From assembly GCA_965178125.1 (NCBI GenBank), contig OZ237735.1, forward strand, positions 558,001-622,000: a stretch of DNA of 64,000 bases, in the 5' to 3' direction. Below are positions 459 through 62,437 of the stretch, in pieces. The notes under the pieces are model-generated. The model had not been told where the DNA came from and did not search any database. It was given only the letters and a program-made list of their open reading frames with translations. This DNA is from Bilabrum cf. latius (lineage: Eukaryota). The stretch's first letter is position 1; each line of letters opens with the position of its first letter. The position numbers and the translations under genes are program-made.

Positions 459-1964
459 ATGTCGAGACGATTGATGGGTTCCTTATCTCGACGAAATGTG
501 AGTGGGGCACCCCAGAGGTCTTGGAATCGTGCGGCTCACGCTCGTGCTTTGCCGCTGCTGTGGAGACGGTAGCAGTCCCTTTGGAGAACACTACAGCGTA
601 GACTTGCATCGAGCCCAGCCGCGACATAGAGTAGCGCTACGCGTGTTGCCGGCGGGGTCAGCCCGACCGCGTTGCGGCTGGTCGCAGCCTGGATCTTCTC
701 CGTCGCTGCAATCGTGTATGTGATGGTCGTCGTAGGTGGCGTGACTAGATTAACCCGATCTGGCCTGTCCATGGTTGACTGGAGGCCGCAGGGCAGTTGG
801 CTGCCTCAGACCGACGAGGCATGGCAGGCCGAGTTCGACAAGTACTAGCAGTTCCCGGAATACAGACTCAGAAACATGGGCATGACGCTCGAAGAATTCA
901 AAGATATCTACTGGTGGGAATGGTTCCACAGGATGCTCGGGCGCGGTATCGGGCTAGCATTCGCGCTGCCAGGCGCGGCCCTCGCCCTCAGCGGGAGCAT
1001 ACCGCGGGCGCTGCGGGGTCGACTGGGCCTCGCCTTTGCGCTGGGTGGGACACAGGGACTCATTGGGTGGTGGATGGTGAAGAGTGGGCTCGACCACAAG
1101 AACTACGAGGGAGAGAACAAATTCAAGGATCCCCGCGTGTCGCCGTACCGTCTCGCAACGCACCTCACCATGGCGTTCAGCATCTTTGGGCTCCTGCTGT
1201 GGACTGGGTTTGACGCGCTTTCCATGGCTTCGGCAGCCGCTGCCGCTCGTGGGTCAGCCAAGGCCATCGCTGCGGCCCCGACTGCAGCGGCCACCCGAGC
1301 AGCCGCCCGGATGCTCCCCGCGCTCACTCTCGCCACTGGCCTCGTGGGGCTCACTTCTTTCGCGGGGGCCTTTGTGGCGGGCAACGACGCGGGCAGGGCC
1401 TACAACGACTGGCCCATGTACGCAGGCAGGCACGTGCCGGAGGAGATCTGGGACGACAAGCTGGGGTACAGGAACGTGTTTGAGAACACCGCGACGGTGC
1501 AGTTCGACCACCGAAATCTGGCCTACGCCACCGTGGCGGCTGTTGGTGTGACGATGGCCATGTGGCTCCGCAGTGGCGCCGCTCTTTTTCCCAAGTCGGC
1601 CAACGTCGCCCTTGCCCACCTCGGGCTGGGCGTGCTGGGCCAGGCAGGGCTGGGCATCGTGACCTTGATGTCGTACGTCCCGGTGGAGCTCGGTGCCGCG
1701 CACCAGGGAGGGGCTCTGGCTCTGCTTGCGGCGGCGCTCTGGTCTAGGCACGCGGTCGGGCGAGTGGCCGGCGGTGCGGGGGCTGTCCACAGAGCAGCAG
1801 CTGCCGGGGGGCCCGCGGGCGCGACTGCTGCTGCTGCTGCTGCTAGCTTGCTTGGTCTGAGGTGCCTGCCCGAGGGGTTTGGACGCGGGGGTTCTATGGC
1901 GGTCGAGCCGAGGGACTTGGGGACAGTGCGCGAGCTGGAGGACGACGTGCCGGGTTCGTAGTGA
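459..1964 (+). CDS. COX15: Heme A synthase COX15, ~501 aa when TAG is read as Gln
   Basis: Single frame from ATG 459 (Arg/Ser-rich targeting-like N-terminus) through VVVGGVTRLTRSGLSMVDW, EFDKY*QFPEY, WEWFHRMLGR, RVSPYRLATHL, GAFVAGNDAGRAYNDWP, VQFDHR and AHQGGA. In-frame TAG at 570, 627, 846 and 1959; TGA at 1962-1964. Confidence 0.93.
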
Positions 1965-2192
1965 AGCGCAGCTGCTCACCGGCTTGCAGCTGCAAGCGCT
2001 CCGAGTTTGAACAGAAATGAACTAAGGCGTACTCGGTACATTCAATTCCCATCATCGCATGCATTGTTGAGTTGCTGCCGCAGCAAGAACCGCAGTAACC
2101 CGGGGGTCTCACGATTCCGTAAAGAATCTGGTTTGTTGCGTGACGCGCAGCAAACTGCAAGATTGTCATTCAATTTCGTGGTGCATTTCCAG

Positions 2193-4447
2193 ATGCGAAC
2201 ATCTGCATCGATGCTTGCATTGCTTGCAAGTGCACTTGCAGCTGGATCTATGGCTGCCGCTCCTCCCAAGGTCCTAATGTTCGTGAGCACAACAGTCCGA
2301 TGGCGCGCATTCGTTCAGCAGTCTATTGATCTTCGAATCATGCTGCGTTCTTATCTCTCTGCAGGTTTTGGTTGATGACTGGGGATACGGTGACGTTGGA
2401 TTTCATCGTGAAAAGCCGGACGCGGAGGTAATCACCCCTACCATCGATCGCCTGGCCGGGCAAGACGGCGTTATCTTTGATCGCCACTTCGTGTACAAAT
2501 TTTGCACGCCGACGCGAAGCAGGTTAGCTATAGTGACCGTGCAACTCCTAGTGGTGCTGCCCATGGCTCTGCTGCATTCCTGGTTATCAATTTTCTCGGC
2601 CAAGTATCGCAGCCTCCTCTCCGGCCGTCTTCCAGTCCATGTGCAAACATCTCTCGCCGACCCCGAGCAGCCAAACTGCGGGATTCCTCGTAATATGACG
2701 GCTATTGGATCTGTCATGAAGCAGGCCGGGTACGAGACCCATGTTGTCGGCAAGGTGAGGCAATTTCACTGTGTAACAAGATCTACCTGCATCCAAGTGC
2801 CTGCGCCTCGGCATTCTGCACGGCCGCTCGACGCATTTGATAGAATCTACACTACGTTTCTACCGCAGTGGGACGCTGGCATGGCCACTCCCACCCACAC
2901 GCCCGAGGGCCGCGGGTTCGACTCCTCCCTCATCTACTTCGTGAGACTTGGATTGCAAGCCAATGGATTCCATGGGTGCTCGGTCCTGGTCTGCGCACCC
3001 TGCTGCATATGTGCATCGCATCCTCTTTGGCACCGCAGGAGCACAAGAACGACTTCTTCACCCAGATCGGGATGCAGAGCAAGTGCCTCAAGTATGACCC
3101 CACGATGGTGGACCTGTGGTCCAACGGGGCGCCCGCGCACGGGCTGAACGGGACGCAGTACGAGGAGTACATGTTCCGCGACCGTGTGATGAGCATCATC
3201 GACGACTGGGACCAGCAGAAGCCGTTGTTCCTTGTGTTCACGCCGCACGTGGCGCATTGTCCTCTGCAGGTGCCCGAGGATGTGTGGGAGAAGTTCGACT
3301 TTGAGGACGACGAGGGGCAGTGCAAGGCCCAGACCCCTTACATCTTCCCTGGCACGAAGGGCGCCGATCCTGCCTCGTACAGGTGCCGGTCGCAGTACCA
3401 CGCAATGGTCAGCATCCTTGACGACCACTTTGCCGCGATCGAGTCGAAGCTGAAGGGCATGAATGTGTGGGACGAGACGTTGATCGTGTCTTCCAGCGAT
3501 GTGAGTATAACTACAGTGGCTTTCCCGTTGCATCTTAACTCCATGATTGGTGTGTCGAGGTTGTGCTGACTTTCATCAGTAATCATTGCAAGGAGACAGC
3601 AATTGTGATGCAATTAAGAGGCTGCTCGACATGCCCCTCGATTCGACTGCCCGCAGAACGGCGGGCCCCTCGTCCTGGACGAAAGCGGTGCATCCAACCA
3701 TCCCCTCAAGGGAGGCAAGTATTCCAGGTGAGCAACTCCAGCAATCGCAGCGATGCGTCTCGGCATTAGGTGTCTTTTGTCAAGTGTCCAAGAGGTATCC
3801 GTTGGTTTCCATCTTCCCTGATCCGCAGCTGGAACGGTGGCACCATGTCCAACGCGTTCGCCACCGGCGGCTACCTGCCGCAGGCTGTCCGCGGCACTCG
3901 CAACGAAGGCCTCATGCACATCGCCGACTGGTACTACACGTTCGCCAAGGGCCTGGCCGGGGTGGATCCCACGGACCACGAGGCGGCCAAGGCTGGCCTG
4001 CCCCCGATCGACGGCGTGGACCTGTGGCCCCTGGTGTCCGGGCAGACCGCGACTTCTCCTCGCGAGGAGGTGGTGATTGACTCGCAGACGCTGATTCAGG
4101 GCAAGTGGAAGTACATCAAGGGCAAGCAGGGCTTCAGCAGCTGGGCCGGGGAGCGGTACCCCAACGCATCGAGCCACAAGATGAGCGTGGAAGTGACGCA
4201 GAACTGCGGCAACGGCTGCTTGTACAACATCGAGGAGGACGTGACGGAGCACGTGGATCTGGCCACCCAGTACCCCGACCGCGTGGCCAACATGAGTGCC
4301 CGGCTCACCACGCTGTCCAAGGACTTCTTCTCCAACAACGACACGGGCGTGGACCGGTGCCCAGCCGACAAGCCCGCGGGCATGCCTTGCGCGTGCTACC
4401 TGGGAATGCACGAGTACGGGGGCTTCTTCGGGCCGTACCAGTACTGA
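2193..4447 (+). CDS. Secreted arylsulfatase (ARSB-like), copy A, multi-exon
   Basis: Signal peptide; VLVDDWGYGDVGFH; formylglycine motif CTPTRSSLLSGR split by intron 2523-2612; GKWDAG; HCPLQVP; SSDNGG; NHPLKGGKYS; GT-AG introns; TGA stop. Confidence 0.9.
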
Positions 4448-6934: not shown

Positions 6935-7104
6935 GGGCTTTTAGCAACACTTGAATGATTTTAATCAGCGAATTGATGGTGGAATCGAAGTGAGCGCGTC
7001 TTGCCGTGAAACAACACGCAAATCGTCAACACCCCAGCACGAATAGCTTGTCTAGACGCAAAGAGAGGATACGGGTGTAGCTTAGCCCAAAGATCCAAGT
7101 ACAG

Positions 7105-10814: not shown

Positions 10815-13337
10815 TCAAGACAGCTGCTTGTGAACCATGGAAGTATACCTACCGCCTTTTTCAAGGAGCTCATCGTGCTTGCCTTCTTCCACGGCCTTGC
10901 CGCCTGCCAGCACCACGATGCGGTCTGCGTGCCGGACGCTGCTGAGCCGGTGAGCGATGATGACAGTGGTCGTGTTTCGCATAGCTCGACGCAGCGCGGC
11001 CCGTACCATTGCCGCGTTGTGCGCGTCCTGCGCCGCTGCGGGCTCATCCAGCAAGAGCAGCCGCGGCTTGCGCAGGATGGCGCGTGCGATCGCAAGCCGC
11101 TGTCGCTGCCCCCCACTCAGCAGTGCACCCCTTTCCCCGAGCTCCGTATCGAGCCCCTGCGGCAACCGAAACGCAAAGTCACAGCAGGCGTCCCGTGCAG
11201 CCTGCTCGATCTCTTCGTCCGAGGCACCCGGGCGCCCGTACCGGATGTTGTCTCGCACGGTGCCCGACCACAGGACGGGCTCCTGCGGTACCACCGCGAT
11301 TTGCCTGCGAACCCAGGTGGCGTCAGCCTCCCGGAGGTCTCTGCCATCCACGGTGACTCGACCGCTTTCCGTGGCGTAGAAGCGCTGGAGCAGCGCTGTG
11401 ATGGTAGACTTGCCAGCCCCGCTCTCGCCCACCAGAGCCACCACCTCACCCGCACCGATTTTCAGATTCAAGCCGTCCAGGACCGTCTGGCCCGGGCGAC
11501 TAGGATACGAGAATCGCACTTCGTGGAGCTCCAGCTCGCCCCTCATGCACCAGTTGTCCGAGCCAGCGGGCGGCTCGTCCTTTGGCAATCCGCTCCATTG
11601 CACGGATCTGCCGCCAGGTGAGAGCCCGTCCCATCTGAGCCCCCCCGGCCGATTCGCAACGGGCTCCAGGTCGAGCTGGTCGAGCACTCTTGACACAGTC
11701 CCGCCGGCCCTGCTGAGCTTCGCAGCCAGTGCAGACCCGCTCATAAGACTACGCTACAGGCCGACGGCTTGCGCCACGAATGCAGCCAAGTCACCCTGCG
11801 TCAGCTGCCCCGCCTGCACCAGCTAGCTGCCACCCCACAGCACGCCGCCAATCACGCCGCTCATGCCCAGCGACAGGCACGCGTGGAAAACCCCGGCGTA
11901 GGTACCCAGCCCAACGGCGAGCCTCCCGGCCTCGTCGTGCTTACCCTCGAACTTGGCAAGGGCAGCCTCCTCGCCCGTGTAGCTCTTCACCAGCCGTACG
12001 TTTGCAAGCGACTCGGCGGCCACGGCTGATGCGGCTGCGCTCGCATCCGAGTACTCTCTAGAGCAGCTCCGCAGGAAATAAAAAAAGGCGTTGCCTGCCA
12101 CCACAGCGGGAAGCGACACCGCCACCATGCCCCCAGTGAGAGCAGGCGAGATCAGGAGCAGAGACGCGAGGCCACCAACGAGGGCAGATGCAGTGCCCAC
12201 ACCACCACCAACCACTTCCCGCACGGACCTGCGAACCTCTCGCACGTCTGCATCGAGCATTTGGAGAAGATCACCGGCTTTGGATGCGTCGTGGTACGAC
12301 ACGTCCTGCCGCATCAGGGAGTCGAATAGCGCCGCGCGCATGCGGCCGCATACCCTCTCTGCGCCGATAGATGCCAGCAAGCTCGCACCCAGGCGAAGGG
12401 CAAACTGCGCAGCCAGCACGATCGCGATGGTTGCGATGCCGTGCTGGGAGGAGGAGGACGAGCGCCCATGCGAGCTGGAGCCCGTGAGCCAGCCGAGCCA
12501 TGACCCGCGCCCGGGGGCCCCACTGGCAGCCCCTCCTCCTGCTTTGCTGCCGCTGCCGGACACAGGTCCGGACATTTTGCTTGCAAGTGCTCCCAAGAGA
12601 TTCGGCGCCGCAACTCCCAATAGCGTCGATACTGCCTGCAGGGCAGCAGCACCGGCGAGAATCCAGACGTCCTCCCGGACGAACGTCCATAGCTTCTGCA
12701 GGAAGCGAGCAGCCCTCGACCGTAGGCGCTTGTGCATCTGTGGGCGGCTCTGAGGGGCTCCAGCTAGCGGGCTGAGGTTCGCGTGAGGCTGGGACGGGCG
12801 TCTGCCACTACCGGCAAGTTCGGGCTGCTCGGGTCTTGCTGGTCGGGTTGAAGATGTATGCATGTCGGCTGTCCGTGAGCCCCGCTTGTCATCGTCTGCG
12901 GATTCATCAATCGCGATCAGTGCTGCCGCCGCCAGTACGACTGCTGATGCATGCATGCTTGCGTCATGAGTTGCCTACCCCTTCAATCTCGCTGTGAAGA
13001 GGCTTGGCACAGCTCGCGGCGACAGTCGGAACAGCTCAAACAGGGATCGAGAATGCCATCCTTGACTGCTGGTGCCCTTCTTGCTTCCTAATTCGATGTA
13101 TTTTCGCCTGCCGCTGAGTCGCAGCGTACATACCTTGTGCGTTGCTTCGGGGCATCGGATGGAACTCGATTCCAGGGTTGAATACCCTGCCCGAATGCGA
13201 AATTCTTCGAGAGTTTGGATCAAACCTGCAACTTTTCTTTGCATACTTTCTGGCAATAATTGCCAAGCTTCGTCTGGAGCGTACGAAAAGCTTCGTGATG
13301 CGGAGTGCAGTCGAGCATTTGAAACAGCCTAGAGCAT
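10815..13337 (-). CDS. Mitochondrial ABCB half transporter (ABCB8/MDL-like), ~840 aa
   Basis: TMD (MRAALFDSLMRQDVSYHD, AAESLANVRLVKSY) plus NBD (GESGAGKST, LSGGQRQRLAIARA, LLLDE, IAHRLS) in one frame with TAG at 13329, 12975, 11823 and 11754. GL*RSL matches ABCB8 TVQRSM. TGA stop. Confidence 0.9.
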
Positions 13338-13529
13338 TGGAAAAACGGCCACACCAGCATGGTTCCTTGCACCTGCCCTCCCACGCATCTAGGGTAAGGC
13401 ATTTAGTGCTCGAGTGACCCGCTGCATCGGCCCAATGCAAATAGCTCAACAATTTTGTGCTGTATTGATACGATGTTCGTCACGCGGCGCACCATCGCCT
13501 GCATGCGTTTTAACGGCACCATTTACGCT

Positions 13530-33930: not shown

Positions 33931-34328
33931 TGGTCCCGAAACGGTGTGAAGACGCGAAGTCGCTCGCGTATTGGCACGCTACTTTGCACGAACTGCAACT
34001 ACCGTCTTGAATGTCCACATGCTGTACAGAACTCGAGCATGGGCAGCACTTTATTGCAACGGTCAGAATGTTACATGCCGGGACGCGGAGACCTTTCTTT
34101 TAGCGGCAATACGCTTGATTCAAGACGATTTGGCACCGATCACTGACGCAACCTCCGCCCGTGCAGTATAATATGCAGTATTTGCTGAATACTACTGCTT
34201 CTTGCACCTGAAATTTGCTGCACTCTTGATTATGGCCGGGATCCAGCTGATCGGTGGGCCATTCCGAGTCTGGCTCTCTCCGACGAAACAGTCAAACGTG
34301 ACACACCAAAACGATACGACACAAAGGC

Positions 34329-35575
34329 ATGGCAGGTGCCGCGGATGTTAGATTAGTTTGTTTCCAATTGTGCACCCACCCAACCGCCATACCAGTGGCA
34401 AAGCGATGGTTTGTCTACTTGAAGCAACCAAACGGTTGTGCCGACTGGACGTGTACCAGGTCATTTCTGATGTATGGATCCACGGTTCTTCCAAGTATCG
34501 AGTTTCCCCCGATGCTATTTGCGACTCTGTGTCCGGTTAGATCGTCTTCATCTCGCACGTTACCGAACTCGCCAACCGGATCCATGGGTCGATCACTTCC
34601 ACGCAGGCTGAGTACGACTGGGTAGAAGACGTCGCAGAGGTGCTTGAAGATGACAGCCCCGGAAAGATTTGGATCATGGACGAGCTGCCAAATGAAGCCG
34701 TAGAAAAGCTGGCTTCCATGATCGAAGGGGCCCCCGACAAGGTTAAGGGGCTCAACGTATTCGACACGAAGATGTCTGCCGTTGGAACCGCTCGACTGTG
34801 CAAGGCGCTTGAAAAATGCACTGAACTTCGTTCACTTAACATGCAGGGATGCGAAGTGGGCGAGTCCGGAGGCAAGTTGGTCGCAGCTGTGATCGCTGGC
34901 TGTCCGAAGCTCTTCGACCTTGACCTCACGGGCTGCAAGCTCGGGGATGAGGGCGCCAGTGCGATCGCTGAGGCCGCAGCGAAGAGTGAATCCATGGTAT
35001 CTGTAGATTTTTCCAAGAACGGGATCACTGATGAAGGTGTCAAGCATATGGCTGAGTCCCTCAAGTCCACAGCCATGATGGGTTCGATCAAGCTCAGCGG
35101 CAACGCGGCAGTCTCCGCCGGAGGAGCCGCCGCACTCGTCACCATGCTGCAAGGCAACAGCGAGATGGAGCTCGTGGACCTCAGTGGGTGTTCCATTGGC
35201 AACGAGGGCCTGGCGGCCGTGGCAGGAGGCATCATGGCGGGTGTGCCGGCGCACATCGTCCGGATGGACGAGGTGGGGGCAGACGATTTCGGGCCCTTGG
35301 CTGAGGCCTTGCGCGGCAACAAGACCATCGACACGCTGTCTATATCCAAGAATAAGGTTGGGGACGAAGGGGCCAAGGCCCTAGCTGCTGCACTGCAGGA
35401 GGGGACTGCTGTAGAGCGGCTGTCTATGGAGAGGTGCGGCATCGGTGCAGAGGGAGCAGCTGCTCTGCTCGAGGCCGCCAAGGCGGAGGGGAGCAAGCTG
35501 GAGTCGATTCAGCTGGACGGCAACGATGATATTCCGGGCGAAGTCAAGGAGGCGATAGAAGCTGCGTGTGACTGA
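34329..35575 (+). CDS. RNI-type leucine-rich-repeat protein
   Basis: Repeated LxxLxLxxCxLGDEGAxAIAEA units; acceptor at 34606; short first exon from ATG 34329 tentative; TGA stop; no TAG. Confidence 0.8.
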
Positions 35576-41690: not shown

Positions 41691-41889
41691 TAAATCAAGG
41701 TCCATGTGACGTGTTTCTTCCCCTGAGTAGCAACAAAATCATAGGCTTGCATACTTTAGCCCAGCTACGAATCTCTCCGTTGCAGCATTAATCTGTATTA
41801 CTCGTAATTTGTACAGTGCTGCTTGGAATTGCCAATCGTTCGCGTTCCAGCGTTGTAAGTTTTTGCATCCAGATCACGCTTTGTTTGGT

Positions 41890-43322
41890 ATGGCTGGAAG
41901 AGGACCTAAGAAGGATACATCGCTGGACAAGACAGGATCTGCTGCAGCATCCCCAGCTGCTTTGGAGAAGGCTGTTGCTAACATCATCAATCCGAAAACC
42001 CGTGATGCTGCGCTTGGAGAGCTGAGCAAGAATAGGGACAAGTTTGCAGACCTAGCACCGATGCTCTGGCATTCAACTGCGACATTTGCAGCTCTCTTGT
42101 AGGAAATCGTGGGAATATACCCAGCACTGTCTCCTCCGACTCTTACTGGCAATCAGTCGACCAAGGTTTGCAACGCGCTTGCCTTGTTACAGTGCGTTGC
42201 GTCGCACCCAGATACCAGGCCACTATTTCTGAAAGGTGAGTGAAATCACGATACTCGTCGCTTTTTCATTTGGCAATGCTATCCGCCGGTGCTCAAGCAG
42301 CTTCGCACTTCACGTCCAATCCTAGCTTCTTCTTCGCAGCACACATCCCTCTGTACCTGTATCCGTTTCTCAGCACATAGACAAAGGCTCGCTCGTACGA
42401 ATTTCTGCGGCTGACGTCTCTTGGTGTCATCGGGGCGCTCGTCAAGCATGACGATCCCAGAGTGGTGGATTACCTGCTCAAAACGGAGATTATTCCTTTG
42501 TGTCTGAGGATCATGGAGACTGGTTCCGACCTGGAAATGATTGTAGCTACGTTTATCGTCCAAAAGATTCTGATGGACGACCAGGGGCTAGGGTACATTT
42601 GCGCGACACCGCACCGCTTCTTTGCCGTCAATCAGGTTCTCGAGCAGCTCGTCGAGAAGCTCGCAAAGAACCCCACATTTAGGCTTCTGAAACACGTGGT
42701 GCAGTGCTATCACCGACTTGCTAAGAACGAGCGAGCTCGTGGCGCTCTCAAGGAGCACATGCCCGTGACGCTGCTCAGCGGAGAGTTCACCGAGGTCCTC
42801 GCCAAGGACATCGATGCCTCGAAGCGGCTCGGCGAGCTGGGAAAGATGCTCCGGGCCGATGCCGGGGCGCCCGGCCATGCAGGTGGGGCAGCAGCCGGCG
42901 GCCTGTCGGCTCCTGCCAGCTCCGGGCCCTCGGTCGCAACGTCGGTCGCTTCGTCGGGGATGGGTTCAGCGCCCCAAGTCTCGGCCCCGATGGGCGGGAT
43001 GGGCATGGGTGGGATGGGCATGGGCGGCATGGGCATGGGCATGGGCATGGGAATGGGCATGGGTGGCGGCGGGTCGGGTGGAATGCCCTCTGGTGCTGCT
43101 GGGGAGCGGATGGCTGGATACATGGGCGGCGTTCCTGCAAGCTCTGGGATGATGGGTGGCATGCGGGGGCCCGGCCCGGCCGCGTCTGGTGGGCTTCGGG
43201 TCCCGACTGGGGTTGGCACGTCCACTGGCATGTCTGGGCCAGGCGTTGGGCTAGGGCTAGGTACGGGAGGCCCAAGGCCGTTTCCCGGTGCCGGCGGGAT
43301 GGGATCATATGGCGGCAGATAA
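41890..43322 (+). CDS. CNOT9: CCR4-NOT subunit CNOT9/RCD1/Caf40 with Gly/Met-rich tail; one intron ~42236-42339
   Basis: [74 protein letters not shown] at 42100 and 42378; TAA stop. Confidence 0.95.
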
Positions 43323-43473
43323 TGATGGGATTTTGTGGTCTGTCTATACACAGTCTCTTGGGCTTGCGGAAGATATCATATTTTGGGAGTGATGATTCGG
43401 AGCCTCTGCGTAGATCTTGTGGCGGGTCTTCCAGCCAAACATTCTTAACCCTGGTAGTCAGCAGCGCATTCAA

Positions 43474-45897
43474 ATGTTGGGCACGAACTATTTTTTGGAT
43501 TGGGGCACCACTTCTTTGAGGATTTGGCGGATAAGTCAAAGCTCTGCATCCGAAACTGAGCCAGCCGATATGCAAGTCGCATATCAAGGCCATACTTTTG
43601 ACATAAACTGCGTCTTCCGATCTAGAGAAGGAGTAGGAATGCATAACAACACTGTAGACATGCTTCAAACACTGAGAAAGGCATTCGAAAAAGGAAATGT
43701 GTCACACAATAGAATAATTGCTTCCGGAATGGTAGGCAGCAGCATCGGCTTGGCAAACACGCCCTGCGTAAGCGCTGAGGATTATTTCTCACAGATTCTT
43801 GGTGGTAACCTGAGTAGTGCAGGTAGAATGGACTGCCATGGAATACAGATCGTGATACTTCCTGGTTTGCAAGCGAACAGCGTGGACTCTCTCGGGTTCG
43901 AGCTCATGAGAGGCGAAGAGCTACAAATAGCAGGGTCATTAGAAATGCTTGCCGCAAGTGAAGGCGGCAACACCAGTATGCACCAGTCGTCGCATCTTAT
44001 GGCATTGCCAGGATCGCATTGCAAGTGGGTACGCTTTCGCACGAGGCAAACGGATCCTTCATTTGCTCGGAGTCCCATCATGTCGTGGCGCACTTCAATG
44101 GCGGGGGAAGTCTTTGAGGCATTGCAGCAAGGGACAGTTCTTCGTCACACCATCTCATCTCATGGCAGCCCCGGCTTCAACAAGGCGGATTCGCAGCGCG
44201 GTTTCGATGCAGCAGTACGCGAGACGGCGCTGAAGGTGAGAGCTGGACAGACAACGAACTTCTTGTCGCGGCTGTTTCAGTGCAGGTCAGCAGCAGTGGC
44301 CGATCGAGGCTTGGATGACGAATAGCCACCATCGTCCTCTTTCCTAGGCGGGTATCTCTCTGGCCTCGTTGTCGGGCAGGACGTTGTCGACGGCTGCTTG
44401 GATTCGACGTCGTGCACCACTCCTATAGCGTTTGTTGGAGAGACAGCTCTTTGCGAGCGATACGCACAGGCCTCAAGCATCTTGCACCATGAGGCACCTG
44501 ACATCTTCCACTCCGACCCCGCTGTGAAAGAACCGGTGATAATCGATGCTGGCAAGGCTACCGCAGTCGGCGTCATCCGCGTGCTCGACGGACTTGGAGA
44601 GCTTGAGCTGCCAGAACAGAGAACGACACAAGCACATGGTTCGGCGTCGGTAGTGTCGCCCCGCAAGGACGAATCCAACGAGCCCATGCAGCACCACAGC
44701 CCAGAGAGGGAAGCTCAACCACAGTCAAACCGACCGTTCGAAAATCAACCGTGTCGGCGTTCGGGCATGTGGAACGAGGAAGACGCTCAGGACTTGTGTG
44801 ACCTCGTTCGAGGCGACTGCAGCCGCACACGAGACGCACTGCGCGATACGCTCGACGTGTTTGATCTGGTCAAGACAGCAAAAACACGAGCGCCGAGTCA
44901 TTCAGACGGCACCCCAGCCGCAATTCCACCGGTGCTGCCTGCCATTGCAATCCTCCGCGGGCTACAACCGAACTCGTCCGTTTATAGCAACATCGCACCA
45001 GCCTTGAACGATACACCTTCCTCAAAGGGACTGGATGCAGTCGCGCAGTCGCTGGTCGGAGCTGGCTTTGCGTTTGCAGAGGTCCCACTCAACCGGCCTG
45101 GTGCGTTGAGCGCGATCAGTGAGCTGGCGGCGTCTGCTGGCCGAGTGCAGCTCAAGGCCGCTAACCGCTATGGGTCTGCGAGCTCCGAAGACGCTGATGC
45201 GCCGCTTAGCCAGTGGCAGGAGATGGCTGACTTGCGGAGGCAGTCCTTGACGGAATCACCGATCGCTGGTATCAGCTCTTGCAATCTGCAGGGCACAATA
45301 TCGGACGTCAGATTCAGGAACTAGCGCTGCGCCTTTGGCAAAGGCATACTGAGCGAGAAGGGCGATTGGCAGAAGGCGAGCAGTGAAGCACGCGGATCTT
45401 CCGATACGATACCGCTGTATCCGCTCCTGGTTGGAGCTGGCACCGTGCTCACCAGGGAACAAGCCCTGTCCGCCTTGGGTGCCGGCGCGCGGTTCCTCGT
45501 CAGCCCGTCGTACAGCGAGGCAGTGGCGAAGGTAGCACGGCAAGCGGGCGCAGCCTACGTGCCTGGAGTTTCCTCGGCGACGGAAGCAATCCGTGCGCTC
45601 GAGGGCGAGGCGGCTGCTCTAAAGGTGTTTCCGGCATCGCAATGGAGCCCAGCGGTGCTGAAGGACCTGAGGAGCGCTTCCCCATGCTGCGCCCGGTGGA
45701 TTCCCGTCGGCGGCTTTGGCGATGACTCCAGCAAGTACACGGATTGGATCAAGGCAGGCGCGCACGGTTTTGGGGTGGGGGGTTCCTTGCTGGAGAGCAC
45801 ACACACTTTGGGCAACGTGGCTGCTTTGAACGTCGGGGTTGCCAAAAGAGTGACGAGTGCAATCCGGCTGGCTGTGCGGGCCACCGTATTTCACTAA
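43474..45897 (+). CDS. Fused 2-keto-3-deoxygalactonate kinase (DgoK) and KDPGal/KDPG aldolase (DgoA/Eda family), ~807 aa, intronless
   Basis: DgoK motifs DWGTTSLR, GMVGS, MRGEELQIAG, LPGSHCKWV, YLSGLVVG; aldolase motifs IAILRG, EVPLN, VGAGTVLT, FLVSP, PGVSSATEA, LKVFPA, PVGG. One frame, TAG at 44323 and 45322, TAA stop. Confidence 0.88.
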
Positions 45898-45989
45898 GTC
45901 TTGTACGCTGCGCTATGAGCACATTTTGAGCTATCTGATGATCAGCAAAGCCAAATACAGTCAAACACACCAATCTCGGCGCAGAGGTA

Positions 45990-46880
45990 TCATTTGTGGC
46001 GGGCTCTCTTTGCTGCCTCACCTGTTGCCTCCGCGCTGCTCCCACCCGCCGCGTCGTCGGTACTCTCCGCAGCAGCAGCGCCACTGATAGCAGCAGCGCC
46101 AGCAGGAGAATCCGCGGGACGGGGCCGCTTCTGGCCTGGTTGCGCTGTTTCGCCTGACGGCCTGGTCGCCTGGCTCACAAGCGACATCGCAAGCGACAAA
46201 GCAGGATCAAGAGCTGCAGCAGCCTGCGGCGCGGCCGCTCCTGATGAGCCGACTGCACGCGTCCGCGGAGGGTGAGCAGCGGCTGGGGCCGGGCGCCCGG
46301 CACTCGCTGCATGTCTGCTATGGGTCTGGACCTGCCTTTGGTAACTGACGTACACGTCAGCTTTGCAGCGTTGCACCATCTGCTCGTTCAGATTGACTGG
46401 TGGGGTCTGATTCATTCGGTGGCACGATGCCGCGTACTCGGGCAGGAGCTTTGACATGAGCAGGAAAACCAGCGCTGCTCCATGCTCCTACGTTGTGCAG
46501 TAGTAGTCGAATCGCATCGCGTTCTTTTGCTCCTAGACTGGCTTCGTATCATCTCTTGCTGCCCTTTCTCCTTTGTCCGTTCGCGCCCATCGGCGCACAG
46601 CCAGCATCGCGAGGTTCGACCTGAACTTCGCCTTGGCCTGATCGGAAACCTTCAACGTGCGGTAGGTGTCAGGGAGAAGCGCCATCACATTGGTATCGGG
46701 GCGTCCCTCCATGCGGATGATCTCACGCTCAAGCACGGCACTATCCTGGAACCGCTCCCACTGCCTACTGCGGCGACCGGTGGCGACCTGTCCACGGTGA
46801 TTGGGGCCGTGTCCGGCATACGCGGTTGGTGGCACCTATGGTCGATGATGCACCATGGCCCCTGATGCTGCAGCAGCCTG

Positions 46881-46911
<31 letters not shown>

Positions 46912-49900
46912 TGCTGCTGCTGCTGCTGCAGTAGCCTTGCCTAGGCTGCCTCCCTAGAGCGTTCAGCCGCCGCTGCAGCCCGGGCATCCAGTCGCGGCCT
47001 GGCCGCCCGGGCTCGAATTTCGTTGCACATCGGAACAGGACAGCGCCCGGGCATTTGTCCACATGTCTTCGCGTGCAGCTCCACGAGCCGCTGCAGCCTC
47101 GGCACTGCAGCACCCGGACCACTGGCTGGGGGCGAGACACCACCCTGTAGCAACCGCCTGGCAGTTTCCAGGGCGTGGGGCGTGACAAGTGCTAGGTCTG
47201 CAGGGGCCACCTGGACGTTGCACGCCTGCTCCAGGGCAGCCACATATGGCTTCATCTCCTCCATCTCACGGGCCTCGCGATCCCGTTTCGTGAAGCTAAC
47301 AGGGATAGCCTTGAGCCGGTGCTTGTGTTTTGGCAGCTTGCCCCTCTGTGTCTAGTCGTAGCATGCGTCACAAAGGTCAAATTCGGGACACTCTTGGCAA
47401 GCCCACCTGTTGCCTTTGAGTATCTTCTGGCTGCAGTTGTTGCACACGTGAACGAACGAGGGCATCTTAGGATTCCTCATGTGGTACAGGACCATCGCAG
47501 TGGAGTGCTTTGCCCTCCGCAGCTAGTCGAACTGGTAGTGGTTGCCCTAGCACAGTTCGAGGAAGTACTCTCGAGTTTCCCAGAATTCGCAACTTACGAG
47601 TGGATCGACGTCGTGCCGAAGCCCGTTCCGGAAGAGATCCACCAGCTCATAGAATTGCTGGGGCGGGCTTGCACCGCCGGCGCCGCTGCTTGCCAGCACC
47701 TCGGAAGGTACGAGGCCACCCTGCCTCAAGCTGCGAGCAGATGCCTTCGTGCCAGGGTCACTGCTGCTGCTGTCGTCGTGCATGGCCACCTGTGCCGAGC
47801 TGGAGCTCGAGCTGCTGCTGCCGGCGCTGCTGAACGACGACGCGGACCCAGAACTTGCCACGGCAAACGGCTGCACGTCACCGTCTTCCTTAAGCTCCTT
47901 CAGAACTTCTAGCTCGCTTTCTCCAGACAGTGCAGGACGCTTCTGCAGCTGCCGTACAAACGCATCGGAGCACAGCCGGCCGCCAGTACCCTCTCGCTTG
48001 CTCCTTTCAAGGGCGTAGCAGCCGTCGCACAGGTTGACCGACTCGCCGTCCTCAAGGTGAACTGGACTGTACCACTGGTTTCCGCTTACGATGAATGACT
48101 TGCAGACTTGACAAGATGGCCACAGTTTGGCCACAAAGAAGTCCTGCCGGAGGTTCACGACCTAGTCAGCCACTTTGTTTGCCAGGGCGTCTGCTACAAG
48201 GTGCGCGCTGGTGGCATTGACCATCCGACCCTTGGTTGTGTGCGACTTCGTGTTACCCGTGGAGGCGTCTCCGTCTGTCCCAGCCATCGACCCACGGTCT
48301 CGTCCCGAGGACGACCGGCGGGCTCTCCCCCCTACTCTTCCCTTGCGCTTCGACCTGGCCTTCTTTCCCTTCGCCTTGCCTTTCTTGGAGCTTGATTTGG
48401 AGCTCTTCTTGCTGGCAGAACCAGAGCCGTCACCGAGCCCGTCATCATCATCGTCGTCGCCGTCATCTATCATGTACTGTGACCCGCTCATTCCAGCAGT
48501 CAAATCTAAGCCGAACGCGGCAGGCGACCGAGCACCGTCTCTGGCCATCTCGTCCGACAGCATCGACTGCTGGGCCCCGGAGGCCACGCCTCGTCTTCTG
48601 CACGCCAGCCACCATAACGCGGCATGCTGCGCCCTGGACTACCTACGAAACGGAACAGGCGCATGCAGGGAGCCTGACGCCGCCCTTGAAGATGTCGTGG
48701 AGCCTGCACCAGATGAGGGCCCATGAGCGTCGGTCACCATTGCGGCTGAGACTAGCGGAACCAGCGGCTCCATGTCGAGCGGTTTGGCGTTGGGGTCCGT
48801 GTACAGGTGCTGGTGCCAAAGCCATTTCCTGCCTTTGAACACCGATGACTGTACGACATCTGCTTCGGAAGATGCTAGCTCCTGCGCGTACGTGTCTGCC
48901 TCACCCGGCCAGTAGTCACCTTTGAAGAGGGGCAAGTCGAGCATGCTCCTCTGCCTGCCCCCCTCCTCTCCTGACTTTGTCGGAAAGAAGTCATCGGCGA
49001 GGTACACGACCTTGTCAATGATTCCAGTCTCGTGAGCAGTGTCAAACATATCTTGGTACCACTTCCTTAGCCTCTCAGACTTGGGATTCTGCTAGTCGGG
49101 CGGGTGGCAGAAGAAGATGTAGTCGTCGCCCTTCAGCGGCGGACACGCCCACAGCACAAGCTGGAGGAAACCCCGACTCTTGAGGTCGCGCATGTACTCC
49201 AAGATGATCTCGTGGAACACAAGGGTCCTCAGCTCGGGCGGGTCAAAGTACCGCACCGAGTCCAGATACGACAGGTAGGCAGACCTGCGGTTGGGCCCAG
49301 GGCAATCGTCCCAGTACTCCTGCACATACATGGTAAATACCAGCACGTCTGCGCCGTCCAGTTCCTGGAACAGAGCCAGTGCACGTGACCTGTGCCTGTA
49401 CTCCTTCTGTGGGATCTGATGAGGGTAGCGGTTACGCAGGGCAGCAGGGACTGGGGTTGTCTACCACGAGTCGCTGACGACTCGGACACGCACAGTAGGG
49501 ATTGGGTACGACTTGCTGGCCTCCTCCCGCACCCGAGCAGAAGGATTCTTCAGGACCTGCTCGAGAGACGAGCCGGCGGCCGAGTCGGGGCTTGCTCCAA
49601 CCAGACTGTCGATCTGCCGCTGCAGGATGAGCTTGTGGACCGCCTTCTCGATGCGCTTGCCCAGGCGGTACTGTGGCAGGTCACGCGCCCGCAAGCCCTA
49701 GGAACTTCGGATGGGTTTGGGCGACTTCCGGATCTTCATCTCCTGCAGAAGGCAATGGGGGCACACCAGCGTCTGTGACTGCACCTGATCATGCTACCGG
49801 TTAAACATCCCGCAGATGTTGTGCATCCACTTGTCGCACACACTGCACTGGACCCATTCTTCCTCATCGATCTACTCATGCTTTGCCTTGATGAGCAGCT

Positions 49901-52232
49901 TCTTCGGAACGATGGTGCTGTCGCTGGAGCTGTCTGTTGGCACCTTGGAGCCGTGGCACGTCGTGCAGTAATGAACGTTGTTGTCCTTGTTGCGATAGAA
50001 TGATTGACCACTCTGGATGCGCTTCCTGCACAGCGTGCAGTACAGCATCGACGGCTCGAACACGAACTTCTAGCCCGCACAAAGGAAGCACACGTTGTTC
50101 GTGAACTAGGCCTGCGCATCGACAGCCACGACTTGCCCTTTCTCGCGCAGCAGCATCTGCTGCCTGCGGTCCTGCAGCCTCTCCTGCTCGAGCCCCTGCT
50201 TGGAGTCGTGCATGTCTCTGAGCAAGATCTCGCTCTGCTCCCTCTCCGCCTCGGCAAACACCTGGTTCATCATCTCGTCGAAGTAGAGCGCGAACTCCTC
50301 CGCAATCAGGGCTACCTCGCTGCCGGGCGGATTATACAGAATGGCGTTGTACCACACCTGCCTCACGTCATCCGAGAAGCCCTTCAGGCTGCGATACCGT
50401 TTTTGCTCGAGCCGCCTTTTGATCGTTCCTAAGTCCATCGGTCGCTTCACAATATCATGGTAGTCTGGGAGCCCGAGCTCTTTCGCATTCACCCGAGAAG
50501 AAAAGAAGTTGTGCCTGCTGTCCTTGGCTAGCATCCGGCTCAAGACCGGCGCACACCGGTCGTGAATGTCCTTGGGCGTGTATATGGCGTTGAAATCGAA
50601 CCGCAGGGAGTACAGGTGCTGCTATAGTTCCTCGTACGACGCGGTGTGCAGCAGGCTGATCTGGGGGTCCAGGGACTGGAAGGTCACGGCCCGTTTCTCA
50701 CTGGCTGAGAACGCCTTGTCGCGGTTCATTACTTCTTTGTGCCTCTGCAGGCTGCGATCTTGCTGCTTCCTGCACCTCTCGAGGCCTTGCTCGTAGAAGT
50801 CTGCACGCAATTGGTACCGCTAAACGCGCTTGAGCAGCTCCATAAGCTTGCGCTCGGCCTCTGCTCGCTTCTCTTTGGGCATCGCTCCTTGGTGAAGCTG
50901 GAAGTGCTGCTGCTGGCTCTGCCGCTGCAAATCGTGCACGTGCCTCTGCATGTCGCTCTTCATTGTGGCGTACAGGTTTACCTGGCACTGGTCGAAGCGT
51001 AAATGCCTCGAGATGTGCTCCCTGGTGATGGCAGCCAGCGACACCCTGCACGCCAGCGGGCAGTCCTTGTCTTGGCATAGGAAGTAGTGCCGCACCACTC
51101 GGCTCCACTTCTGGGTCTAGCTCGTCGCGCTCGGCTGCCTCCCGACTCCCCCCGTTGTCAAATACTCGCCCGCCTCCCGAATGTACCGCAGTCGCCTCTG
51201 TCTGTTCGTCTCTGTGGACGCAGCAACCGACGACGAGGAAGCTGCTGGGACCGGAGGCGGTGCCATGGCGGTGCCTACCTCTGCATCCACGATGGCCTGG
51301 TGCCCACGGGTAGCCGGGTGATCGATCGGCGGGGCAGGCTCGTCGTTGTCGGGCAGCACAAAGGCTGCCTTGAACCGGGCCGTCGCAGGCTTGAGGCACC
51401 TGTCCTTGAGCAGCGTGATCACGTTGCGCACGTCCTTGCACGAGTATGAGCCGTGCTTGCTGCACTGCTCCCCCATGCACGGGTTCGAGGCAAACGTTTG
51501 GATCGCAGTCACAAGGTCGCGCCAAGATGCCAGCTTGCTGGGGTCCCGCGGCAGCGGCTCGAGAGTGGAGCCGGGGATTTTCTTGCTGGCCGTAGCAGCA
51601 CCGGCAGCGCTTGCCGCTGCAGATGATGCGCCGTTGCTGCCGCCACTGCTCTGGTGCAACCATGTCCCAGCTTTCCTTGAGGCGTTATCCACGTGCACCA
51701 CGTATGCCTGCAGCCTCATTACCTCCCTTCCCTTCATGACCCTGCTCTCCTGCTCTCGTAGCCCTCCCCCATACAGCTGTTCCGACTTGGTCTTATTGTA
51801 CACGTCCATCCGTGCGATCGCGTCCTGCCTCTCTTCTGGCGTCATCGGGGGGAGCTTCGGCAGGGGGGGGACTTGTGGGATCGAAGGGATGGCGGGGAAG
51901 ACCTGCTGCGACCTCGGGGAAGCTGAGGACTGGGGCCGGGCCGCCGAGGCGAAGGCAGCTCCCGGGGCCATACCTGCCTGGCCGGTACTGGCGACTGCAG
52001 TCGCAATCTCTGAGGCCGTGGAACGCTGCCGGTCCACCTGCACGGCGTGCATGCTCGTTGAGGCCGAGCCAGAAGAAGAGGAGGACGACTATGGGTGCCG
52101 GGCAGAGGTTGGCGGTGCCGACACAGGGTCACTGGGAGACATCGTCAGGGGTCGAGGCGCCTGACCCGGCGCGGGTTGCGACCCCGAGGCCTACTGAGCT
52201 TGCGCAGTCGGAACTCTGCTTGCTTGCGACAT
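45990..52232 (-). CDS. CBP/p300-like (KAT11/HAC) histone acetyltransferase, ~2,080 aa: TAZ-like, bromodomain, PHD, HAT, ZZ, TAZ, polyQ
   Basis: 13 track ORFs in one frame. LGLPDYHDIVKRPMDLGTIK; WVQCSVCDKWMHNIC; YLSYLDSVRYF; WACPPLKGDDYIFFCHPPD*; FKGDYWP; LC*GNHYQFD*LRRAKHS; CPEFDLCDACY. TGA at 45990. Confidence 0.92.
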
Positions 52233-52949
52233 AATGAATCGGGTTACTTTCTTCTGCACCCGCTTGGGCTTCAAATAGTCCTCCTGCGGTGTCTGGCTTG
52301 TTCGAACGGCGTGCTTGCGTCATGAAATTGCGGGCAATTTCAAACGGAGGAAGCGAATACAACATACCTTGTTGCTGTTCGCTTTACGCCACTGCTATTC
52401 AGCATACGCAGCAAGGTCCTCAACAGATGCGTAGTCGATCCCGGCGAAGGTTGACCGAACAACTTGTCGACTGCGAGGCCAAGGTCAGATGGATCTGCAA
52501 AAATGCAGCAGTTGCAATCGAGAGGCTGAAACATTAATTTCGACTGAATGCTACAAATCTCACATTATCGCCATGACTTGCTCTCGCTCCTCCGCTGTAA
52601 CTTGCATCGTATCCATTTCGCCAAATGTCTTAGCAACCGCAAAGAAAGATCAGTTGAACGAAAGAAAACAGATAACTGTACAGGCTGGACCTACTCTAAA
52701 CGCTGCACGGGCGCTGAGTTGTGGAAACGAGCCCAAGGTGGCTTTGCGGCTTCGTTTTGGCCAGGCGGTTCATGAAGGTTCGATCTCGGCCACAATTTCG
52801 GCTGCAATCGTTGGGTGGCAATTTGCATGAATCTTGACTTAAGTAGTATGTTTTGTTGATATCAACAAGCCGCTACAACTCCACACGATCTGGTCCGAGC
52901 TCCTTTGTTCCTACCGTGGCATTCAGCACACCCCTCGCTACCTGTGCTC

Positions 52950-54978: not shown

Positions 54979-56613
54979 ATGTCTGACAGAAGATCAGGGA
55001 CAGCAGCAGTGGACGCCTCGCATGACGGCTCTGCGCCCAGTGAGATTAGTGTTATTTTGCAATTGAAGCAGCAAAGTACGAGTTGAGCGATCCATGCAGA
55101 TATGTACTAGTGTTATTGATCGGTTGGTACCGGCTCGTGCGGACCATGAACCTATTGGCCGACTAATCCCATGATTGTATCTACGCGACCACATCGCAAT
55201 TTTGCGCAGCCGCTGCCGCCGGGGAGGGCCGAGGAATAGAGATTCGAAACGTCTGGGATGAGAACCTAGAAGACGAATTCGCAGAGATTGAAGCGCTTAT
55301 AACAAGATTTCCCTTCATAGGTCTTGACACGGAGTTTCCAGGCGTTGCGGTTCGACCTGTCCGCCCTGCGCCATCCAAGGAAGCGTTCCATTACGCCACT
55401 CTGAAGCTCAATGCCGACATGCTGAAACTGATTTAGCTTGGAATTGTTCTGTGCGATAAGGACGGGAACATGCCCGAAGGCAATCCAGTTTGGCAGTTCA
55501 ACTTTCGGTTTAGCAAAGCGTGAGATTGAATCGTACATGCTCTGCCCCGGCCACAGCTAATTGCATCGCTGCGCTCTTGGAGTGCTGCTGTCGCTTCTGC
55601 ACTGGCCCCGCCACTTTGCTGCAATCCCAAGGCCTCATGTCATGCCGGAGCCTGATTGCTTTCGTCGCAGTGAGGACGTGCACGCCCCGGCCTCCATCGC
55701 ACTGCTGGAGAAAGCAGGCTTGGATCTCGAATCCCATGCGATCGCTGGGATTGACCCGTTCCGTTTTGCGGAGCTATTTGTGACAAGCGGACTCGTGCTG
55801 ATGCCCGATGTGCGATGGATCACGTTCCATGCTGGCTACGACCTCGCCTACATGCTGAGACTGCTGACGCAGAAGGAGCTCCCCAGCGACGTAGCCGGCT
55901 TTTTACAGCTCTGCAGAACGTACTTTCCCCAGATGATAGACTTGAAGTTCGCCCTGAGGCACAGTGACGAGCTGCACGGCGGGCTGGCCCGCGTCGCCAA
56001 GGCGCTGGGAGTCGAGCGGAAGGGCACCGCGCACCAGGCCGGCAGCGACGGTCTCATGACGGCGCAGGCGTTCTTTGCTCTAGTAAACAGGTGCGAAGCG
56101 GCAGAGCGGACCGCTGGTGGCAGCGGGAAGCGCGGCGGGAAGGTGGGCCCTGTGAGCAGCGGGGTCTTTGAGGGCCTAAAGGCATTCAGGGAGGGAGCAG
56201 CGGCCGCCCCCGGGGTTGTTCCCCAGGGGGGATCCGCCGGGGGGGCTGCTGCTGGTGGGGCCTCGTCAGGCAGAGCAACGGGCGGGGCCGCGTCTGCCTC
56301 GCGGTCGACGGGCGGGGGGGCGGGGGCGGCTTCGGCTGCCTAGCACGTGTGCGGGTGGACGTACGGTCTGGTCTCCGACGGCGACATGGAGAGGACGAGC
56401 GCATCGATGTCTGCCTCGCTCGCCAGGGAACAGCGCACCCTCGAGCAGCAGAGGCAGCAGAAGCGGTTGCAGGAGGAGAGGGAGGCCAGCGGCAGGCCGA
56501 GCTAGAGGCCGGGTGGAGGAGGCCACGGGTTCGGGGGCGGCGGGGGAGGCAAGTTCGGGGGCGGCGGGGGCTCGGGTGGCCGCGCGACCGGGGGTTGGCG
56601 CTCGCGCGGCTGA
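54979..56613 (+). CDS. CAF1: CAF1/POP2 (CNOT7/8) deadenylase, three exons
   Basis: IRNVWDENL, GLDTEFPG, LKLI*LG, WQFNF, SGLVL..WITFHAGYD, HQAGSDG; the C-terminal motif CGWTYGL lies downstream of TAG 56341; TGA at 56611. Confidence 0.93.
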
Positions 56614-58356: not shown

Positions 58357-58569
58357 TATTCATGCATCGCATCCAAATGCTGTAGGCATCACAAATCGAT
58401 GAGAAGTAGTGATGATGAGGCTGCAGGAGCAGTCTCATCATGAGGCTTCTTCCGGTGTTCATCAACAAAGCCGGGGTGTTGGGAGCCAGAGCGTGATACT
58501 GGAGGCGGGAGCCAGTATGTTTTCCTGGTTGTTTTAAACCCGTAATACTTGCAGTACCACGGTGATGCC

Positions 58570-59343
58570 ATGAGCAAGAAGCCAACGAACGAAGAACAGG
58601 ATGCGATTAAGGAATGGAATGCTAGCGTATCTGAATCTACCAAGTACAAGAAGAAGCCATTTCCATGGTCTGCGGCTGCAATTGCAATAAGCGTGCCTCT
58701 GGCTGTAGGGGTAGCGGTAGTCCCGTTCATAGTAATCCCCTGGCTTCCAAAAGCATAGTATGGTGGCTTACCGTTCATGGCCACGAGTCCCAGGCGCGTT
58801 TAGATGATGCTCGAATGGATATCTATGGCCAGGTCTCAGTCAACATCGACCCATCTTGGTGCTGGCGTCAAGGGTGTTGCCGGAACCAAGCGAAGCGTAG
58901 CTGGATTGCGCTTGTCGGACCTAGGCAGCGGCGACGGCGAGGTGGTCGTGCAAGCAGCTCGTGCGGGCATGGTTGCCACAGGGTACGAGCTGAACCCAAG
59001 CCTGGTAGCCATTTCTCGTTTACGATGGTTGCTTGCCCGGGCATCCGCAGAGAAGGGTGGCAGCGCTCGCTTCGTGATAGGGAACCTGCTCGAGGCTGCG
59101 ATTGGAGATGAGGACGTCATCATGGTCTTCGGAGTACCGCCGCTCATGCCCCTGGTGGCTAAGAAGCTGGAACAAGAGGCCAAGGCTGGCGCACTGGTGT
59201 TCTGCCATCGGTTCCCACTGCCTGGATGGACAGCGGTGCAGGAGGGAGACGGCTGCCTGCTCTACAGAGTGCCTCTCGACCCTAGCAGCAGCGAGGAGGC
59301 TGATGCAGGCAAGCAGGAAGAACAGACAGAGGGGAGGCGCTGA
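58570..59343 (+). CDS. FAM173 (ATPSCKMT/ANTKMT)-like mitochondrial lysine methyltransferase
   Basis: N-terminal TM, LPFMATS, DLGSGDGEVV, GYELNP, VFGVPPLM, CHRFPLPGW; TAG at 58756 and 58801; TGA stop. Confidence 0.85.
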
Positions 59344-62424: not shown

Positions 62425-62437
62425 ACTATATAATATT

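Follow-up and report, generated by a model that had tools for sequence, protein, structure and literature searches.

The window, a stretch of 64,000 nucleotides (nt) of contig OZ237735.1 (positions 558,001 to 622,000 of the forward strand), raises the question of which genetic code its genes are read with. In an earlier note on this DNA it was proposed that UAG specifies glutamine (Gln) while UAA and UGA are kept as stops. Judged from sequence comparisons, this is very probably the code used in the cytoplasmic translation of the nuclear DNA, corresponding to the mapping of NCBI table 15. The proposal is sustained by conserved protein columns, profile likelihood, a near relative, a distant relative (the metagenome contig L001) and the use of stop codons.

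With the standard code, the longest stop-to-stop frame in the window comprises 515 amino acids (aa). When TAG was read as a sense codon, frames of 4358, 2109, 1929, 876 and 833 aa were obtained; in the corresponding controls the longest frame was 636 aa with TAA as sense and 760 aa with TGA as sense. In the two remaining frames of this DNA, TAA and TGA together amount to 21.7 per 1000 codons; at this density, runs of 4358, 2109 and 1929 open codons would arise by chance with probabilities of about 3e-42, 9e-21 and 4e-19, respectively. A greedy set of 29 non-overlapping TAG-sense open reading frames (ORFs) of at least 150 aa each, some of which are probably not genes, holds 132 TAG in sum, and 24 of the 29 contain at least one. 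For a strict count, 14 ORF segments on both strands were used, belonging to 11 genes with a Pfam, PDB or near-relative match. In these 13,150 codons 102 in-frame TAG, no TAA and no internal TGA were found, the one TGA within the counted segments being the terminal stop of CAF1 exon 1. With 7.8 TAG per 1000 codons, 16% of all Gln-type codons are TAG (102 TAG, 406 CAG, 143 CAA).

These counts agree with what had been estimated before, namely about 100 in-frame TAG and no internal TAA or TGA. The estimate that at least 15 genes carry TAG is borne out by homology for 11 of them; no homology support was found for the putative genes ending at 7105 and 60976. All 11 coordinates quoted at that time are the given triplets on the given strands, with TAG at 42100, 55434 and 846 (plus strand) and at 49092, 47547, 11754 and 33742 (minus strand), and TAA at 43320 and 45895 (plus strand) and at 7105 and 60976 (minus strand).

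The distant relative L001 is a JGI metagenome contig of 15,301 nt with 54% G+C. Its ortholog of the p300/CBP-type histone acetyltransferase (p300) is 52.6% identical to that of the window over 2019 aligned positions. As in the window, it is adjoined by a convergent gene for a fusion of 2-keto-3-deoxy-galactonokinase and KDPG-aldolase (DGOK-aldolase; 14426-15301 in L001), and a 1,3-beta-glucan synthase gene lies on its other side. The p300/DGOK-aldolase synteny, being kept in L001, could be a marker of the lineage. In L001 the standard code allows no frame longer than 682 aa, whereas reading TAG as sense opens two, of 2065 and 2003 aa, which contain 22 and 14 in-frame TAG and neither TAA nor TGA. 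The chance of such long frames is about 1e-26 to 1e-27.

To assign the residue, the two true ortholog alignments between the window and L001 were evaluated reciprocally. The X standing for TAG was scored equally against every residue, so that the aligner was unable to favour Gln. Opposite the 22 aligned TAG sites of the window, L001 has Gln at eight, Lys at three, Val and Glu at two each, a shared TAG at one, and His, Arg, Met, Ser, Asn and Ala at one each. Opposite the 22 aligned TAG sites of L001, the window has Gln at 11, Ala at three, Lys at two, the shared TAG at one, and Glu, Asp, Thr, Ser and Arg at one each. Where local identity is at least 0.55, Gln stands opposite TAG at eight of 11 window sites and seven of eight L001 sites. 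With substitution frequencies taken from the same alignments, the log-likelihood was -90.4 for Gln, -125.2 for Glu, -128.2 for His, -129.1 for Lys and -130.6 for Ser. Gln thus leads Glu by 35 log-likelihood units, and Leu is not among the six best. TAG is paired with Gln at 19 of 42 sites (0.45), compared with 0.39 for the pairing of Gln with Gln in these alignments. This reciprocal comparison is considered decisive for the residue.

A public protein collection contains the predicted genes of a 51,229-nt contig, which represents a near relative. In a search with the half-size ABC-B transporter of the window (ABCB), the top match was its protein P0001 with 96% identity; the remaining matches were mostly full-length plant and animal ABCB1-type proteins, which told little about the lineage or the TAG columns. 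P0001, which was called from an internal Met downstream of the last preceding TAG, carries Gln at both covered TAG sites of the transporter, 11823-11825 and 11754-11756, one of which is a column where distant homologs favour Lys. Within the searched protein collection the 4358-codon gene of the window is kept only in this near relative, where it is split into four fragments, P0271-P0274 (333, 234, 223 and 178 aa; 87-96% identity). P0271 has Gln at the window TAG 22061-22063 (residue 3072), giving Gln at all three covered TAG sites of the near relative. It stops at residue 3366, directly before the window TAG 21176-21178 (residue 3367). As this end coincides with a TAG of the window, the genes of the near relative were called with TAG as a stop; it therefore shares at least one in-frame TAG with the window, and it uses standard codons for its Gln residues. 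Gene calling with the standard code thus splits the genes of this lineage in that collection, and annotations elsewhere are likely to be affected alike.

Only one TAG position is common to the p300 genes of the window and L001, which is expected of a long-established synonymous codon. Since the code is common to close and distant relatives and TAG has been exchanged with CAG or CAA many times, the reassignment is old and clade-wide.

Homologs of greater distance were used to examine individual columns. In p300, the TAG at 49092 coincides with Gln in 147 of 150 homologs (library representatives of p300/CBP) and the TAG at 47547 with Gln in 118 of 143; a third TAG column has Thr in 54 and Gln in 38 of 143. 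In PDB alignments, CHPPDQ of human CBP is aligned with CHPPDx of the window, and ALLQEIV of human CNOT9 with ALLxEIV at TAG 42100-42102. The TAG 55434-55436 of CAF1 lies in LKLIxLG, which corresponds to LKIIQIG in S. pombe and LKIIQLG in human CNOT8. Of the seven Gln motifs quoted in the earlier note, five are thus borne out, by homologs at the CNOT9 and CAF1 sites and at the CHPPDQ and 47547 sites of p300, and through the near relative at the ABCB site. For a Codetta-like score with p300, ABCB and IRE1 as queries, those TAG columns were taken that are covered by at least half of the homologs (14 of 26). Scoring by HMMER emission probabilities over the 14 columns yielded 10.84 nats for Gln, followed by Lys (8.45), Arg (4.10) and Glu (3.67). 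When this was calibrated on 14-column subsamples, 37 of 39 ordinary codons were assigned their true residue in 93% or more of the draws (CTG 81%, CTT 5%).

Whether TAG is also present in transcripts was approached with public sequencing runs. Of the 16 runs listed, 13 contain a 10-kb stretch wholly or in part, several of them under other organism labels and from other studies. The share of matching words is 0.88 in X5, 0.85 in X6 and 0.70 in X7, and X10 and X12 come from relatives with roughly 90% nucleotide identity to the window. Runs X1-X4 may include the window's own source sample and are hence not independent. Four runs were compared over 32900-52400, and the small-share runs X9, X11 and X13 were left out. 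Contigs of X6 and X7 omit GT..AG intervals of the coding strand at 35892/35989 and 52282/52367 (both runs), 42233/42338 (X7) and 45907/46022 (X6). The joint at 42233/42338 links the two CNOT9 frames in phase and makes the Rcd1 match continuous. Depth in X6 and X7 differs up to about 20-fold between adjacent genes and is even in the DNA-like run X10. Because of the spliced joints and the uneven depth, X6 and X7 were read as derived from cDNA. Their pieces show no difference to the window over 45 (X6) and 25 (X7) in-frame TAG; all 18 TAG of IRE1 lie in contigs of X6 and of X7 without any difference, and all 21 TAG of p300 in such a contig of X6. As regards the editing check asked for earlier, these spliced, cDNA-like contigs (guessed to be RNA, and assembled) keep every covered TAG. 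Resting on the reading of the splice joints, these data argue against U-to-C editing, with some room left for partial editing, and against assembly error.

Several observations weigh against the assignment. Most covered TAG sites lie on variable columns rich in Lys, Arg and Glu, including the remaining covered TAG columns of p300, and only two of the 14 scored columns are dominated by Gln, in addition to the one with Gln second (38 of 143). A cruder score based on raw counts with BLOSUM pseudocounts placed Lys first (-0.29) and Gln fourth (-8.36), and the margin for Gln from the sequences of distant homologs alone is therefore modest. The COX15 gene ends in TAG-TGA, which leaves room for occasional termination at UAG. 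None of the public runs is on record as RNA, X6 being tagged 'RNA? (probably DNA)' and X7 being a guess, and all runs are assembled contigs in which rare variants are lost. Finally, no tRNA genes were found in the 64-kb window or in L001, an Rfam search of the window returned no family at threshold, and the window contains no eRF1 gene.

Among the alternatives, a dual meaning of UAG fares best and is nonetheless improbable. In this case UAG would be sense inside genes and a terminator near the 3' ends of mRNAs, as in Condylostoma, karyorelict ciliates and Blastocrithidia. Apart from the end of COX15, it is favoured by the unannotated ORF 17054-18067, which has TAG one and four codons before its TGA. 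However, all 10 homology-supported genes terminate at TGA (eight) or TAA (two), and none of them needs TAG as a terminator. The C-termini of p300 and DGOK-aldolase agree with those in L001: the TGA of p300 follows similar basic tails in both contigs, and the window DGOK-aldolase ends with TAA (45895) at about the point where the L001 ortholog has TGA. In ABCB, a TGA stop follows immediately after the conserved C-terminus.

Somewhat less probable still is an ordinary code of the NCBI table 6 type, in which UAR (UAA and UAG) is read as Gln, TGA is the sole stop and TAA is merely rare in a G+C-rich genome. UAA and UAG are usually reassigned together, as stated in two papers (PMC5304391; PMC11687900), and TGA is indeed the commoner terminator here. 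Against such a code, about 36 in-frame TAA would be expected in the supported codons if TAA related to TAG as CAA to CAG (143:406), and none is present. Common internal TAA had been put forward in the earlier note as a point on which its reading could fail; L001, too, has none in 4359 in-frame codons. Reading TAA as sense extends neither the 4358-aa nor the 2109-aa frame. TAA also ends genes: the ends at 43320 and 45895 noted earlier belong to the homology-supported genes of CNOT9 and DGOK-aldolase, the latter at about the TGA terminus of its ortholog, and the 1,3-beta-glucan synthase of L001 terminates with TAA. With TAA at gene ends and not within frames, the code is not an ordinary UAR code.

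That TAG is a sense codon for another residue, most plausibly Lys and then Glu, is very improbable. At several TAG columns many distant homologs carry Lys (57 of 131, 55 of 116 and 50 of 78), and it is Lys that the crude count-based score ranks first. Since a single mutation leads from TAG to AAG or GAG, columns rich in Lys and Glu are, however, expected for a Gln codon of this kind. The near-invariant Gln columns of p300, CNOT9 and CAF1 leave practically no place for Lys, the near relative has Gln even at the ABCB column favoured as Lys by distant homologs, and both the L001 test and the HMMER-emission score favour Gln. Scarcely credible, and with no finding in its favour, is an artefact, the TAG being assembly or sequencing errors, pseudogenes or U-to-C edited sites (CAG in the mRNA): X1-X4 may share the sample of the window and offer no independent check, but X5, X6 and X7 hold the same DNA under other labels and in other studies, the spliced contigs agree with the window at every covered TAG, in-frame TAG also occur, mostly at positions of their own, in the relatives with about 90% nucleotide identity and in L001 with its 52.6% p300 identity, and 102 errors that always produce TAG and never TAA or TGA would be an implausible pattern.

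The reading of UAG as Gln with UAA and UGA as stops is placed in a lineage by p300. In a FastTree analysis of 437 core columns from 150 sequences, the window p300 is found in nested clades of six (support 0.97), seven (0.91) and 15 members (0.945), the last of which includes Hondaea fermentalgiana (a labyrinthulomycete, Bigyra) and a record labelled Batrachochytrium salamandrivorans. Organism names are available for 10 of the 30 nearest p300 clusters, and seven of these are stramenopiles (Hondaea, Aureoumbra, Peronospora, Aphanomyces, Albugo, Chrysoparadoxa and Discosporangium); a grass, a record of Symbiodinium and the Batrachochytrium record already mentioned make up the rest. The host is thus likely a stramenopile, as judged from this one gene, and of the earlier description of the host as a Cafeteria-like stramenopile, the term 'stramenopile' is supported, but not 'Cafeteria-like'. 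The names of IRE1 homologs (fungi, insects, Dictyostelium and others) gave no lineage signal. The nearest p300 proteins in the library are 39-42% identical to that of the window, 1846-1960 aa long and intact, which suggests that these lineages have no in-frame TAG; the gene calling behind them is not on record. An aphelid host (Amoeboaphelidium) had been considered on account of Zoopagomycota among the ABCB matches and relatives in runs labelled 'algae metagenome'. It was ruled out, as the aphelid code is cited as UAR = Gln, whereas TAA does not act as sense in the window, and as those p300 relatives that bear names are mostly stramenopiles.

Up to about 61.1 kb the window has a G+C content of 59% and consists of tightly packed eukaryotic genes on both strands, with few introns of the spliceosomal GT..AG type (about 85-115 nt). 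By Pfam and PDB matches the genes were named as COX15, a half-size ABC-B transporter, a TBC RabGAP, a leucine-rich-repeat (LRR) protein, an IRE1-like kinase/RNase, CNOT9, a galactonokinase/KDPG-aldolase fusion, p300/CBP acetyltransferase, CAF1 and a sulfatase-like gene. The positions of the features are compiled in Table 1.

Table 1. Features of the window and the matches by which they were recognized.
Feature	Positions	Strand	Evidence and remarks
COX15/CtaA	459..1964	+	Pfam PF02628, E 1.3e-96; 4 in-frame TAG; end is TAG-TGA
Half-size ABC-B transporter ORF	10815..13445	-	Pfam ABC_membrane and ABC_tran; PDB ABCB8/ABCB10; 5 in-frame TAG
Lineage-specific 4358-codon ORF	18200..31276	-	32 in-frame TAG; TGA stop; fragments of the near relative match
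TBC/RabGAP gene, two ORF segments	31619..34050	-	Pfam PF00566 on both; 10 in-frame TAG
Leucine-rich-repeat (LRR_6) gene	34172..35575	+	Pfam; 2 in-frame TAG, both in an X6 contig with 0 differences
IRE1-like kinase/RNase	35901..41690	+	Pfam Pkinase, Ribonuc_2-5A, zf-CCCH; 18 in-frame TAG; TGA stop
CNOT9/Rcd1, two exons	41710..43322	+	Pfam PF04078; TAG 42100-42102; TAA stop 43320
2-keto-3-deoxy-galactonokinase / KDPG-aldolase fusion	43396..45897	+	Pfam PF05035 and PF01081; 3 in-frame TAG; TAA stop
p300/CBP-type histone acetyltransferase	45990..52319	-	Pfam HAT_KAT11, Bromodomain, ZZ; PDB CBP/p300; 21 in-frame TAG; TGA stop
CAF1/POP2 deadenylase, two exons	55167..56613	+	Pfam PF04857 on both parts; TAG 55434-55436
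ORF, standard code	62438-63325		Similar to minor capsid/penton proteins of virophages (Atlas feature score 0.98 for the Sputnik V18/19 domain); ends TAA
ORF, standard code, cut by window end	63399-63998		PDB 6g43/6g45 'putative major capsid protein', E 2e-10

A GT..AG intron of the IRE1-like gene lies at about 35893-35988, where X6 and X7 both have a spliced joint. That of CNOT9 lies at 42234-42337, and its exons 1 and 2 match positions 2-88 and 84-256, respectively, of the Pfam Rcd1 profile. The PDB alignments of the TBC/RabGAP gene span none of its TAG sites. In the 4358-codon ORF, which is rich in low-complexity sequence of Ser, Ala, Arg and Gly, no domain was detected in the Pfam search. 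Galactonokinase and KDPG/KHG aldolase are bacterial-type enzymes of the De Ley-Doudoroff pathway and are joined here in a single 833-codon frame.

Two observations concern 3' ends. At 45907-46022 (minus strand), the X6 contig splices out 114 nt with GT..AG ends, including the p300 TGA at 45990-45992 and the last ~10 codons. This joint may represent an alternative 3' splice form of p300; the unspliced C-terminus with its basic tail resembles that of the L001 ortholog. The transcript spliced in this way overlaps the 3' end of the convergent DGOK-aldolase gene. For IRE1, the cDNA-like contigs from two studies stop 53-67 nt short of the TGA of the frame (41688-41690): the X6 contig at 41635, where adapter-like letters follow, and the X7 contig at 41623. 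These ends could reflect a break in coverage ahead of the nearby CNOT9, or the transcript may truly end before the annotated stop is reached.

At about 61,150 the G+C content drops sharply from about 55-60% to 12-38% and stays low up to the end of the window (61150-64000). This segment looks like an integrated mavirus-like virophage or polinton-like element, as judged by its composition and its two capsid-like ORFs. PDB entries 6g43/6g45, matched by the second ORF, are presumably mavirus capsid structures. A comparison of the penton-like protein with a viral contig collection found no relative. Neither ORF has an in-frame TAG, and both are therefore readable under either code. A mavirus-like element is merely compatible with a 'Cafeteria-like' host.

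For the mechanism, a tRNA-Gln with the anticodon CUA would read UAG and not UAA. As UAA still acts as a stop, pairing of the decoder has to be restricted to UAG, which points to this anticodon. Such a tRNA-Gln(CUA) would probably derive from a duplicated tRNA-Gln(CUG) through a single change of the anticodon and would be accepted by the glutaminyl-tRNA synthetase. In addition, eRF1 would have lost affinity for UAG, probably via changes in its N-domain (GTS, NIKS or YxCxxxF motifs). This reasoning follows that of Panek et al. (2017, PMC5304391) for the eRF1 of Iotanema, which carries T32G in the GTS motif.

The closest known counterpart is the nuclear code of Iotanema spirale (Fornicata) described there, with UAG as Gln and UAA and UGA as stops. 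It has the same mapping, with UAG alone reassigned to Gln and uncoupled from UAA, and the same predicted tRNA-Gln(CUA) and weakened contact of eRF1 with UAG. It differs in that Iotanema is a metamonad, whereas the present host is stramenopile-like, and in that UAA is the primary stop in I. spirale, whereas TGA prevails here as terminator of the supported genes. The Iotanema case was derived from a transcriptome and the present one from genomic DNA and two relatives. UAG-only Gln codes have further been described in the ciliates Protocruzia tuzeti and two phyllopharyngean lineages (McGowan et al., 2024, PMC11687900), which likewise read UAG as Gln without UAA and are further independent origins. 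Ciliates are the group most prone to code change, and the present host is not a ciliate by p300 affinity or by genome style (G+C content and intron type). UAR is read as Gln in many ciliates, hexamitin diplomonads, ulvophyte algae, oxymonads and Amoeboaphelidium protococcarum (PMC5304391, PMC11687900), where UAG is presumably also read by a tRNA derived from tRNA-Gln; there UAA is Gln as well, whereas here it is absent from the supported frames and ends genes. UAG alone is reassigned, with UAA still a stop, in the rhizarian exLh (UAG as Leu) and in Scotinosphaera (UAG as Ser) (PMC5304391; PMC11687900), in each case to another amino acid than the one found here, where Ser lies far behind Gln and Leu is outside the six best residues in the L001 test. 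'Genetic code 15' with TAG as Gln is also known from crAss-like and other gut phages (PMC9523058). There, late genes of phages are recoded in bacterial hosts, while here nuclear housekeeping genes carry the TAG.

No report of a nuclear UAG reassignment in stramenopiles was found in the full-text literature, in which subscription journals are mostly uncovered; since, moreover, the underlying runs date from 2019-2025, a published or forthcoming report is possible. In a 2024 stramenopile overview, codon reassignment appears only in a reference on mitochondrial codes. We consider the chances about even that the window represents the first nuclear code change in stramenopiles, an old and clade-wide reassignment of UAG to Gln with UAA and UGA kept as stops, independent of the fornicate and ciliate cases.

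Changes of the nuclear code are rare, and those that split UAG from UAA are rarer still, being described, in the cited papers, for Iotanema, exLh, Scotinosphaera, Protocruzia and a few other ciliates. An independent case in another major eukaryotic group would strengthen the view that eRF1 and tRNA-Gln are readily retuned to split these codons. Metagenomes or cultures contaminated by this lineage would be mis-annotated under the standard code. The sharing of the code at clade level, together with the turnover of the codon, offers a route to dating the event and to finding a standard-code sister lineage. If the reassignment is true, the organism, which seems to be available as several sequenced strains with DNA and cDNA-like data and carries the probable mavirus-like element, could become a tractable system for the decoupling of UAG and UAA in eRF1, and also for the response of giant viruses and virophages to a host in which a possible stop codon of theirs is read as Gln.

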